The position numbers were made by a program, and so were the translations under genes. This document shows, in pieces, positions 29,933 through 35,439 of a DNA stretch of 64,000 nt; position 1 is the stretch's first letter; each line of letters starts with the position of its first letter. The DNA is taken from positions 31,648-95,647 of IMG/VR virus record IMGVR_UViG_3300042691_027063. One strand, given 5' to 3'. The notes under the pieces were generated by a model. The model ran no database searches. It worked only from the letters and a program-made list of their open reading frames with translations, and was not told where the DNA came from. The stretch is from a virus.

Positions 29933-29968
29933 AAAAGACAAGCTCCCAAGCTATTAAGCTCAGGAGCC
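29933..29968 (-). terminator. probable rho-independent terminator
   Basis: GGCTCCTGAGCT-TAAT-AGCTTGGGAGCT then TGTCTTTT. Confidence 0.6.
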
Positions 29969-30078
29969 TAGAGGTAGGGTATAAACAATTGATTTCATTT
30001 AGGTCGGCTTGACATAGCCATGACATCAATCGTTTGACAATATAAATTTTGAAGGTTTGCCTTTATTTACCTACAATT

Positions 30079-30246
30079 TCACGCTATGCGAGCGGCTAAT
30101 TCTTTCTTAGCTAAGTATCTAGTCTTTGCTTCTAATCCAATATAATCATAAAATCTAGGCTTATTATTTCCTGTATAAAAAGTCCAAGCATTATAAAATT
30201 TCCACTTACCATTAACATATACAGCATAAAAGTTATATGGTCTCAT
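30079..30246 (-). CDS. small early protein directly downstream of hammerhead 2
   Basis: MRPYNFYAVYVNGKWKF..., 55 aa; SD AAGGA is the 3' strand of hammerhead stem III. Confidence 0.65.
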   Translation of the reverse strand: MRPYNFYAVYVNGKWKFYNAWTFYTGNNKPRFYDYIGLEAKTRYLAKKELAARIA

Positions 30247-30251
30247 TTTAT

Positions 30252-30304
30252 TTCCTTTTCGTTCTTTTGAACTCATCAGGTAAGACATACATCTTACGAA
30301 GGAA
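30252..30304 (-). ncRNA. type III hammerhead ribozyme
   Basis: UUCCUU-C^-GUAAGAU-GUAU-GUCUUAC-CUGAUGA-GUUC-AAAA-GAAC-GAA-AAGGAA; all three stems pair, core intact; predicted cleavage between 30298 and 30297. Confidence 0.9.
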
Positions 30305-30607
30305 GGGGAGATTTTTGCCTCCCCGCTTCTAACCAATACCCTTCATTCCCATGTCAGGTATCAGTCCTAGTGATATTAGCCGTTTATTTGTGGTTCACAC
30401 CTTATTAGCTAAATCACGCCCAAGAAAAAGAATAGTTTAGCCTGATCTTTTTCCGGTGAACATAGGTAGCCTCTCAGCTCGTCTTGTTGCGCAAGGACGC
30501 TCTTCTACCTACTGCCAACTATTTGTTGGACTTTCTTTTGATTATTTTTGCTGCATCCGTACAGCCTAATTAGTTTTTTAGACTCATCAGGTAAGGCTCC
30601 ACCTTAC
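30298..30607 (-). ncRNA. predicted 310-nt RNA released between two hammerheads
   Basis: Bounded by the two cleavage sites; no ATG-initiated ORF longer than 8 codons; many stems. Confidence 0.6.
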
Positions 30608-30631
30608 GACGGCTGTTTAGCCGTTTCGTCT
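30580..30631 (-). ncRNA. type II hammerhead ribozyme
   Basis: AGAC-GAA-ACGGCU-AAAC-AGCCGU-C^-GUAAGG-UGGAG-CCUUAC-CUGAUGA-GUCU; predicted cleavage between 30608 and 30607. Confidence 0.9.
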
Positions 30632-30650: not shown

Positions 30651-30923
30651 CTACACTTTTTTTACAAGCACAATTTTAGCAGATTCTTTTTCTTTTTTTG
30701 CTTTTCTTACTTGCTCCCGCAAATAATCAAGCCGTGCTCGCTCATTAGACTTCATGTAATGTCCATTGTCAATGAGTCTTTTTTCATTTGTCACTACTCT
30801 ACCCCATTGAGAGTGTAAGTTAGCGCCAGCTTTAATACAGCTCTTTGTTTTTTCTGCATTTTTAGCTGCCTTAAGCTGCGCTTCAATCTTTTTTTGAAGC
30901 AGCATCTCTTCTCTAGTCATCAT
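30651..30923 (-). CDS. basic early protein
   Basis: 90 aa, GAGGTG SD. Confidence 0.7.
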   Translation of the reverse strand: MMTREEMLLQKKIEAQLKAAKNAEKTKSCIKAGANLHSQWGRVVTNEKRLIDNGHYMKSNERARLDYLREQVRKAKKEKESAKIVLVKKV

Positions 30924-33975: not shown

Positions 33976-35439
33976 GTGGCTGATGAGGTAAAGAAAGCGG
34001 CGATATCTGCTAAAGCAGCCAAAGCTGAGCTCTGGAGGCGTGGATTAATCCAATATAAAATGCACGTCAATCAGAAAGAGATGTACGATATTTATAAGAA
34101 TGCACCAGATAACTCTATCATGGTGTGGCTTCTTGCTCGTCAGTCAGGTAAATCCTATTGTCTCGGACTCATTGCGGTTATGGAATGTCTTTCTAAGCCA
34201 AATGCGATTGTCAAGCTTCTGACCGATACAAAGCTCCACGTAAAAACAATCTTTGAACCTATTTTTAGACAGATATTCGATGACTGTCCAGAAGACATTA
34301 AGCCAGAATATATCCCCTCTCAGTATGTTTATGTTTTTAAGAATGGTAGCCAAATCCAGCTGGCTGGTTCAGATGGTAACTCTGCAGAAAGACTACGTGG
34401 ACAAAAATCTGACTTGGTTCTAGTTGACGAGGCTGCGTTTTGTTCTAATCTTGATAATAACGTAATGTCTATTCTTCTACCGACAACAACACACACTGGG
34501 GGTAAGATTGTACTAGCCTCAACCCCTCCGTCTGATCCAGATCATGAATTTGTTCAGTTTATTGAAAGGGCGGAAAAAGACAAACTTCTTACAAAGAAAA
34601 CAGTTTACGACAACCCACTACTAACCAAGGGACAGATAGACAATATCATCTCTAAATTCAGTGGTGGTATTTATAATACACAGTTCCGTAGAGAGTATCT
34701 ATGTGAAATGGTTAAAGATGAGAATATGTCTGTTCTCCCGGAGGTTGACGATGAGCTTCTTTCTCAAATAGTAAAGGAACATCCAACTCCTCCATTTTGC
34801 AATAGATATGTCGCCATGGATATTGGATTCAAGGACTTGACCGTTGTATTATTTGGATATTACGACTTCAGGGAAGATAAAATTATAATCCAGGACGAGA
34901 TAGTAAAAAATGGTAAACAAATCCATCTGCCTGTTTTTACTAGAGAAATAATGGATAAAGAGGCTGAGCTTTGGACAAATCCTCTTACAAATGAACAATT
35001 TGAACCAGATAGTCGCGTATCAGATATCAATCCATTTGTTTTACAAGAAATTAATATAGCTTCTGATGGTCAACTCTCCTTTTCTGTGGCAGCTAAAGAT
35101 CATAAATTATCTAATATCAATAGGTTACGAGTTATGTTGGCTGGACATAAAGTTATTATTAGTCCAAAATGTGAGAATTTAATTCGTCATTTAAAAAACT
35201 GTAGATGGAAGGATAAGAGTTCAAAAGATGAATTTGCTAGGTCTCCAGATGACGGTCACTACGATGCTGTAGATGCTTTATTGTATTTTGTCCGTGCCGT
35301 AAACTACCGCAAAAATCCTTATCCAGTGGGTTATGGTCATAATATCAATAACATGCATATCGAAAATAGAAGCAAGTTTTATAACAATTCCCACGTAGAG
35401 ATTTATAATCAAATTTTTGGTGTAAAGAAAAAGCGTTGA
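33976..35439 (+). CDS. terL: terminase large subunit
   Basis: ARQSGKS Walker A, LRG, LVLVDEAAF Walker B, ASTP, RREY, MDIG, DAVDAL. Confidence 0.93.
   Translation: MADEVKKAAISAKAAKAELWRRGLIQYKMHVNQKEMYDIYKNAPDNSIMVWLLARQSGKSYCLGLIAVMECLSKPNAIVKLLTDTKLHVKTIFEPIFRQIFDDCPEDIKPEYIPSQYVYVFKNGSQIQLAGSDGNSAERLRGQKSDLVLVDEAAFCSNLDNNVMSILLPTTTHTGGKIVLASTPPSDPDHEFVQFIERAEKDKLLTKKTVYDNPLLTKGQIDNIISKFSGGIYNTQFRREYLCEMVKDENMSVLPEVDDELLSQIVKEHPTPPFCNRYVAMDIGFKDLTVVLFGYYDFREDKIIIQDEIVKNGKQIHLPVFTREIMDKEAELWTNPLTNEQFEPDSRVSDINPFVLQEINIASDGQLSFSVAAKDHKLSNINRLRVMLAGHKVIISPKCENLIRHLKNCRWKDKSSKDEFARSPDDGHYDAVDALLYFVRAVNYRKNPYPVGYGHNINNMHIENRSKFYNNSHVEIYNQIFGVKKKR

Follow-up and report, generated by a model that had tools for sequence, protein, structure and literature searches.

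Can a phage hammerhead ribozyme govern the translation of the gene that follows it? The question is raised by a locus in which the apparent Shine-Dalgarno sequence (SD) of a small gene doubles as one strand of a ribozyme helix, the other strand of which lies across the predicted cleavage site. We analysed this locus within a window of 64 kb (the whole stretch of DNA considered here), which is the right-hand part of a 95.6-kb IMG/VR phage record that is complete per CheckV. The locus is on the minus strand, among small genes diverging from the plus-strand structural genes (the start of a terminase-like ORF is at 33976). In minus-strand order it reads ORF90, a first hammerhead (HH1), a 310-nt stretch without an ORF, a second hammerhead (HH2), ORF55, a terminator-like hairpin and ORF42, which carries an AAGGAG of its own. 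HH1 and HH2 are the only two hammerheads in the window, which contains no tRNAs; BLASTN against deposited phage genomes returned no match. The features are as follows.

30651 to 30923, minus strand: ORF90, the gene upstream of HH1, used as the marker for finding related loci
30580 to 30631, minus strand: HH1, a predicted type II-permuted hammerhead, cut after 30608
30298 to 30607, minus strand: 310-nt segment without an ORF between the HH1 and HH2 cuts, a conserved structured RNA
30305 to 30324, minus strand: GC-rich hairpin GGGGAG-GCAAAAAU-CUCCCC, adjoining the stem III 5' strand of HH2
30251 to 30305, minus strand: HH2, a predicted type III hammerhead with a complete core, aligned over the full Rfam RF00008 model
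30252 to 30257, minus strand: AAGGAA, the stem III 3' strand (A15.1 to 15.6) and putative SD, from the sequence and its relatives
30079 to 30246, minus strand: ORF55, 55 aa, with its start codon 10 nt past the GAAA of HH2
29939 to 29970, minus strand: intrinsic-terminator-like hairpin with U tract (14-bp stem, then TCTTTT), downstream of ORF55

A promoter candidate before HH1 (TTGTAA-17-TAAAAT, 30667-30639, 9 of 12 positions matching) was discarded: shuffles contained such matches at least as often as the scanned region did.

The second hammerhead and the start of ORF55

HH2 can be read directly from the minus strand, in the following elements.

30304 to 30299, minus strand: UUCCUU, 5' strand of stem III
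30298, minus strand: C17, with the predicted cleavage site directly after it
30297 to 30280, minus strand: stem I, GUAAGA-UGUAUG-UCUUAC
30279 to 30273, minus strand: CUGAUGA
30272 to 30261, minus strand: stem II, G-UUC-AAAA-GAA-C
30260 to 30257, minus strand: GAAA
30256 to 30252, minus strand: AGGAA after the GAAA, followed by AUAAA and the AUG at 30246

A15.1 together with AGGAA (30257-30252) pairs with UUCCUU (30304-30299), and the elements that define a type III core (CUGAUGA, GAAA, the A15.1-U16.1 pair and C17) are all present in the window. The same core was found in all nine versions of the ribozyme compared below, with U or C as N7 and C or A as H17. The Rfam Hammerhead_3 model (RF00008) aligns end to end with HH2 at 36.1 bits (E 7e-6), short of the gathering score of 48.5 that is the threshold of the family, so that a default gathering-threshold Rfam scan shows nothing at this place; the HH2 copies of relatives score 23.9-35.2 bits against the same model. 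We attribute the shortfall to the short stems and to the non-consensus sequence of stem III, and not to defects of the core. Folded in isolation, the 71-nt stretch adopts the hammerhead as its minimum-energy structure (energy z-score -1.9); once long flanks are included, other structures are sometimes predicted as the minimum-energy fold. The comparative signal came from eight aligned versions, in which 96.1% of the cells of the three-stem structure were paired and 12 of the 16 pairs showed compensatory changes. None of 500 shuffles reached the covariation score of these eight versions, and the signal collapsed when the 3' partners were slid by 1-3 columns. From its anatomy, conservation and covariation, HH2 is thus a type III hammerhead, as predicted from sequence, and we infer that it cleaves itself in vivo.

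An earlier, sequence-only reading of this DNA held AAGGAA (30257-30252) to be the sole SD for the ATG at 30246, paired with the UUCCUU directly 5' of the cleavage site. Both statements proved exact in their coordinates and in the pairing, and we found no other SD or purine motif between HH2 and this ATG. AGGA ends 6 nt before the AUG (30246), and the spacer from SD to AUG (AUAAA) is 5 nt long. In the window, an SD-like 4-mer (GGAG, GAGG, AGGA or AAGG) is present at -18 to -4 of 33 of the 45 long ORFs, the background being about 11% of random 15-mers, and several of these SDs read AAAGGAAA or AGGAA with similar spacing. Since the phage uses AGGA-type SDs, AAGGAA is plausible as an SD and probably serves ORF55 as such.

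In-frame ATGs upstream of the ORF55 start fall inside the ribozyme, and in relatives the reading frame is already closed at 18-27 nt before the ATG. Homologues of ORF55 directly follow HH2 in two relatives (L126, 53% identity; L119, 29%), and the three proteins have in common a C-terminal LExKxRxxAKxEL motif. As judged by sequence comparison, ORF55 is a real gene family. The protein matched nothing in Pfam or PHROG; a word-indexed protein search for homologues returned the window's own protein only, and a pattern scan of viral contigs returned none. We also noted that in the window the start-codon region (A)UGAGAC (30244-30250, minus strand) is complementary to GUCUUA (30280-30286, minus strand), which largely overlaps the stem I 3' strand, and that RNAfold pairs the two in the cleaved leader. 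This pairing is peculiar to the window and is not kept in L126.

Relatives, outgroup and the excised RNA

Relatives were found by searching viral, metagenomic and genome collections first with ORF90 and then with four of its homologues in alignment. Together with the window they gave nine distinct versions of HH2 (window, L003, L119/L127, L122/L123/L124, L126/L118, L130, L121/L100, L128/L059 and L288), the ORF90 identity to the window ranging from 67% down to 35%. The versions share ancestry, and a count of nine out of nine does not stand for nine independent events. Every version has the same module: the GC hairpin, a pyrimidine 5' strand, the cut, stem I and CUGAYGA, followed by stem II, GAAA, (A)GG(A/G)A, a spacer of 3-5 nt and the ATG. 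The distance from GAAA to ATG is 10, 8, 8, 8, 9, 10, 7, 7 and 9 nt. That the SD-in-stem-III geometry should be conserved in homologues had been put forward as a check of the idea; the check was run, and the geometry is present in 9/9 versions, whatever gene follows.

The stems differ in how they vary. Stems I and II change freely, with flips of pair orientation (UA/AU, GC/CG) and with variable loops; stem II appears as UUC/GAA, AUC/GAU, UCA/UGA, UCU/AGA or UUG/CAA, and as GC/GC (only 3 bp) in L119. Stem III varies only between U-A and C-G, and its 3' strand therefore stays all-purine; in every version the inner five positions of this strand are purines and GGA lies within the helix. In L126 (1718-1813) the stem I loop has about 78 nt, as against 5-6 nt in the other versions. 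This long loop has internal pairing of its own; the core, stem III, SD and ATG of L126 are unchanged.

What follows the ATG is far less constant. The gene belongs to the ORF55 family in three versions, is an ORF42-like membrane peptide in three, and is an unrelated ORF in L003, L122, L127 and L130; the downstream gene has changed at least six times across the clade. L119 (3084) and L127 (3093) have the same sequence through HH2 as far as the ATG, and their divergence sets in directly after it; L127 has a new 58-aa ORF at the ribozyme-linked start, its ORF55 homologue lying one gene downstream with a GGAG of its own. From the comparison of these two contigs, gene cassettes appear to have been exchanged exactly at the start codon. 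Indels are common beside the junction, including insertions of whole genes, and the junction itself has not drifted. One version (L288, CAZWDF010000131.1) is a 3.9-kb contig in a Candidatus Saccharibacteria metagenome-assembled genome and carries the whole module; as a lead to the host it is weak, since so short a contig cannot be binned reliably. Another contig, L253, at first taken for a relative lacking HH2, was rejected as a coincidence within a coding region.

To place the clade in a wider setting, we used a pattern for the core and stem II (CTGATGAGNTCAAAAGANCGAAA), which matches 111 viral (IMG/VR) contigs (L006-L116). These contigs carry a family of phage type III hammerheads with a stem II of the form NUC-AAAA-GAN and a hairpin-plus-ribozyme layout; the GC hairpin directly 5' of stem III occurs throughout the clade and in the majority of the 111 contigs. 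The two groups have in common this hairpin, a short stem III, a 6-bp stem I, the core and a 4-bp stem II with an AAAA loop, followed by a gene. They differ in stem III, which is CAG/CUG- or CGG/CCG-like in the outgroup (85 distinct hammerheads), and in the gene start, which in the outgroup is distant and has its own SD or none. Counting only ATGs that begin an ORF of 30 aa or more, the next start in the outgroup lies 18-145 nt past GAAA (median 28, n=85), and the SD, where present, is outside the ribozyme, with overlap in 0/85. Within the 111-contig set, an ATG within 12 nt of GAAA occurs in the two clade members only. In most of this family the gene starts 18-35 nt downstream, and many genes have no SD before the ATG. 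From these features the 111-contig family looks like a reusable module for 5'-UTR processing and insulation. The overlap of SD and stem III, found in 9/9 clade versions and in 0/85 of the outgroup, therefore looks like a derived and maintained trait of this lineage and not a property of the whole family.

A scan for independent lineages with an SD in stem III (CTGAYGAG..CGAAARGR..ATG) gave at least 116 distinct matches; among the matches listed, no type III hammerhead that had stems I-III and an ORF was seen. Many of those listed are, by eye, type II hammerheads followed by a purine-rich ribosome-binding site reading CGAAAGG. In L140, L167, L200, L203, L246 and others, two or three type II hammerheads stand in tandem on one contig, each followed by purine-rich CGAAAGG(G/A) and an ATG within about 15-25 nt.

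The predicted HH2 cut is also the 3' end of the 310-nt ORF-less RNA. Where both cut sites could be placed, this non-coding RNA is 253-438 nt long (L003:921-1358, L119:2774-3035, L122:1400-1682, L130:2832-3084 and L288:1199-1498), and 8-10 relatives have conserved blocks and covarying hairpins in it. The blocks comprise GAAAG-YC and, after it, a covarying hairpin of 5 bp closed by an AAAUAG loop, GAGCGUCC..GCAAC..GAC.AGCUG.GAGG, an invariant GGGC, and CUGACACGGGAGUGAAGGG, which includes a CAC-GGGA-GUG tetraloop hairpin. Compensatory changes were seen in 37 of the 53 pairs of the predicted consensus fold. The RNA matched no Rfam family, and a scan for its conserved block gave only chance matches besides L003, L100 and L119. 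After the predicted cleavage, the GC hairpin (30305-30324), which the terminator scan does not flag, is the 3'-terminal hairpin of the excised RNA. With a 5'-hydroxyl and a 2',3'-cyclic phosphate, the excised RNA might possibly be a substrate for RtcB-type ligation; we found no terminal helix that joins its ends and would favour such ligation. Two further identities were considered for this RNA and dropped. Its GAAAGUCC and ACAAAUAAACGGCUAAUAU resembled CR-I and CR-V of RNase P RNA, yet the latter block falls within an insertion peculiar to the window, and none of the RNase P families was matched at E <= 10. Drum RNA was considered for a supposed link to ribozymes; this link is absent from the paper on drum RNA, and there was no Rfam match.

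The 5' boundary of the RNA in the window is predicted to be set by HH1. Its 5' part reads AGAC-GAAA-C-GGCU-AAAC-AGCC-GUC, after which comes the predicted cut (after 30608), and its 3' part consists of stem I (GUAAGG..CCUUAC), CUGAUGA and GUCU, the open stem II having 4 bp. HH1 had no match to RF02276 at E <= 1 and a partial match of 19.4 bits to RF00008. Its core and permuted order are kept in 7 lineages, with one compensatory change in stem II (AGAC/GUCU to AGGC/GCCU). In seven versions the boundary is formed by this putative type II hammerhead; in L121 (2777-2831, 46.4 bits, E 8e-8) and L128 (1647-1701, 38.6 bits, E 1e-5) a twister-P1-like ribozyme (RF03160, gathering score 67.2) takes its place, both scores lying under that threshold. 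The twister-P1-like elements cover the full model length with P3 deleted, their P1 and P2 covary between the two loci, and they occupy the position of HH1 after the ORF90 homologue, preceded by a GC hairpin. Different ribozyme classes thus seem interchangeable at one processing site. Since the class was swapped at one boundary, there is strong comparative evidence from these sequences that cleavage itself is what selection keeps there.

Cleavage and ribosome access

We now turn to whether the cut matters for translation. The sequence-only reading had argued that cleavage frees the SD from its anti-SD strand, that translation of ORF55 would depend on it as in a switch, and that the protein would be coupled to release of the 310-nt RNA. 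Strand release itself stood up well. In the precursor of all nine versions the SD pairs with a strand on the 5' side of the cut, so that cleavage would leave it on the 3' product without this partner. Re-binding of the released strand in trans is predicted to be weak, at -4.5 to -8.4 kcal/mol; the window value of -6.2 kcal/mol converts to a Kd in the tens of micromolar. Because this Kd is far above cellular RNA concentrations, the release should, by these estimates, be effectively irreversible.

The gating of translation fared less well. Its geometric part is borne out, as the SD lies in stem III and this arrangement is conserved, but the energetic part is small. In a nearest-neighbour secondary-structure model, freeing the region from SD to AUG costs 2.4-5.9 kcal/mol before cleavage and 1.6-4.7 kcal/mol after it. 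The extra masking before cleavage amounts to 0-3.2 kcal/mol across versions and to 0.0 for the window, because there the cleaved leader finds alternative weak pairings. Secondary-structure models ignore the tertiary contacts of hammerheads and may therefore understate masking. The 30S subunit and protein S1 are able to open an A/U-rich stem of 5-7 bp. A strong on/off effect on translation is not supported by the modelling; uncleaved RNA may be translated at a reduced level.

To call the arrangement a switch is too strong, because natural hammerheads cleave constitutively and fast and because neither a sensor nor a competing conserved structure was found: HH2 contains no aptamer-like insertion or recognizable sensor domain, and we saw no conserved alternative fold. 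A fixed order of events fits better, and nothing suggests that cleavage is regulated. One candidate for an alternative fold was the GAAGGG block of the non-coding RNA, which can pair with the UCCUUC tails in the window, L119, L126 and L130, a pairing that RNAfold sometimes prefers. As a conserved element it was rejected, being impossible in L003, L122, L128 and L288, where the tails read UUUCCUA or UUCCUUA or the block is GAAGCA. The proposed link between the protein and the release of the 310-nt RNA is real in that the same predicted cut makes the 3' end of that RNA.

The explanation that we consider moderately likely is that HH2 is a constitutive device for ordering and insulation, cut first and then translate, and not a signal-responsive switch. 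HH2 would cleave constitutively, and its single cut would do two jobs. On the upstream side it would leave the 3' end of the non-coding RNA, the terminal hairpin followed by UUCCUUC with a 2',3'-cyclic phosphate, the 5' end of the same RNA being made by the second ribozyme. On the downstream side it would leave the 5'-hydroxyl end of a short mRNA, the leader of which would consist of the ribozyme body (the stem I and II hairpins), the SD, the 5-nt spacer and the AUG; this mRNA of HH2 leader and ORF55 would end at the terminator-like hairpin (29939-29970). A 2',3'-cyclic phosphate upstream and a 5'-hydroxyl downstream are the established products of hammerhead cleavage, and an mRNA that begins with a 5'-hydroxyl and two hairpins, with SD and AUG right behind them, and ends with a terminator-like hairpin is expected, from what is generally known of bacterial mRNA decay, to be stable. 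The SD would be paired in the precursor, its partner would depart with the non-coding RNA, and an intermolecular duplex of 5-7 bp would be too weak to persist. Ribosome loading would therefore follow cleavage, and the start of translation would be tied to completed RNA processing.

This explanation has to be weighed against others. That HH2 is not a working ribozyme at all, and that a chance or decayed cluster of hammerhead-like hairpins happens to precede an ordinary gene, could appeal to the Rfam score under the gathering threshold and to an energy z-score of just -1.9. Against it, none of the invariant core positions is missing from the nine diverged versions, all three stems show compensatory changes, the HH2 family spans 111 phage contigs, and HH2 has a companion ribozyme upstream; we regard this idea as scarcely credible. 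A reading that grants cleavage and denies its effect on translation is harder to dismiss: HH2 would be a processing and insulating ribozyme that forms the 3' terminus of the non-coding RNA, provides the mRNA with a stable 5'-OH hairpin leader and cuts so fast that masking has no measurable translational effect, and the overlap would be a matter of compaction. The CGAAA and purine strand is already SD-like, so the overlap could stem from economy alone; the modelled masking difference is small (nil in the window); the outgroup hammerheads are 5'-UTR modules with the SD outside the ribozyme; and reviews propose that such ribozymes process RNA into transcripts of differing stability (PMC6765202, PMC3088659). 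Yet compaction leaves unexplained why the SD stays in the stem in every relative, with 7-10 nt from GAAA to AUG and GGA inside the helix in 9/9 versions, despite neighbouring indels and gene swaps. We consider it possible but doubtful.

A true regulatory switch would require that the cleavage rate of HH2 respond to Mg2+, to temperature, to a protein of the phage or the host, or to pairing of UUCCUU with the non-coding RNA; ORF55 translation and RNA release would then be tuned jointly. The GAAGGG pairing described above would offer such a means in four versions; it fails in four others, and the cores all match the canonical active consensus, with no aptamer-like insertion, which makes a switch improbable. 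Finally, the coupling could run in reverse, a 30S subunit on the nascent SD competing with stem III and thereby lowering HH2 cleavage and release of the non-coding RNA, since the same six nucleotides are required for both events. However, stem III can form once AAGGAA exits the polymerase, and a 30S footprint needs about 15 nt more; folding would have a kinetic head start (these points combine established knowledge with reasoning of our own). No comparative evidence separates the reverse order from cut-then-translate, and we think the former very improbable. Overall, we favour the device that cuts first and translates afterwards over compaction without gating and over a regulated switch.

A broader proposition would be a natural principle of phage control, in which a ribosome-binding site is hidden in a ribozyme and translation of the first gene is licensed only once processing is complete, the output of a small early protein being tied, in stoichiometry and in time, to the release of a structured non-coding RNA. 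We put this forward tentatively and think it rather unlikely in this full form. If it were true, phage hammerheads, the job of which has been open since 2011, would gain a defined and testable function, and engineered aptazyme switches would have a natural, ancestor-like counterpart. Were the masking effective, the locus would be the natural counterpart of the hammerhead-RBS devices of synthetic biology; were it ineffective, the locus would still be a phage hairpin-plus-hammerhead module acting as an mRNA end-maker and insulator. The locus offers a concrete and cheaply testable hypothesis, that a single cut both completes a non-coding RNA and exposes the ribosome-binding site of the next gene. 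The comparative signal is unusually clean, with the junction frozen in nine versions while the stems, the class of the upstream ribozyme and the downstream gene all change.

Comparison with known systems

Thousands of hammerheads are known from phages and prophages, and reviews, one of them from 2019 (PMC6765202), still call their role undefined (PMC6765202, PMC3088659). Perreault et al. (2011) described clustered prophage hammerheads that flank genes and cleave in vitro and in E. coli, and suggested that they may process polycistronic RNAs; in the haloviruses HF1 and HF2 a hammerhead lies 13 nt before a start codon, and the text mentions neither the Shine-Dalgarno sequence nor ribosome binding (PMC3088659). 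A natural hammerhead with its SD in a stem is not described in the full-text literature that we searched, which covers few subscription journals and makes this a weak absence. With the hammerheads of Perreault et al. (RF00008, RF02276), the present ones have in common the class, the core, the site between small phage genes, the nearness of two ribozymes on a single transcript and a suggested function in processing a long transcript. They differ in that the SD is a strand of stem III, with GGA in the helix and an unusual purine at 15.2, and in that the two ribozymes bracket a conserved non-coding RNA and not a gene.

Engineered hammerhead aptazymes and thermozymes that free an SD by cleavage are well established (PMC5367253, PMC12192606), and SD-liberating designs do switch translation in bacteria (PMC5367253). 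As in HH2, the SD is paired in or beside a hammerhead helix and cleavage removes the masking strand. The engineered devices, the only form in which a cleavage-gated switch of this kind is known, are synthetic: a type I scaffold from Schistosoma has been given a longer stem and a sensor for ligand or temperature, whereas HH2 has no recognizable sensor, uses the stem III of a type III hammerhead and has a masking helix of only 5-7 bp. In fungal and plant RNA viruses, self-cleaving ribozymes before ORFs were proposed in a 2026 paper to act in translation initiation, and one of them has its cleavage site 7 nt before a start codon (PMC13725137). These resemble HH2 in being small ribozymes directly upstream of a viral ORF; they differ from it in being eukaryotic type I hammerheads linked to cap-independent initiation, with no pairing of an SD, the feature that sets the present locus apart.
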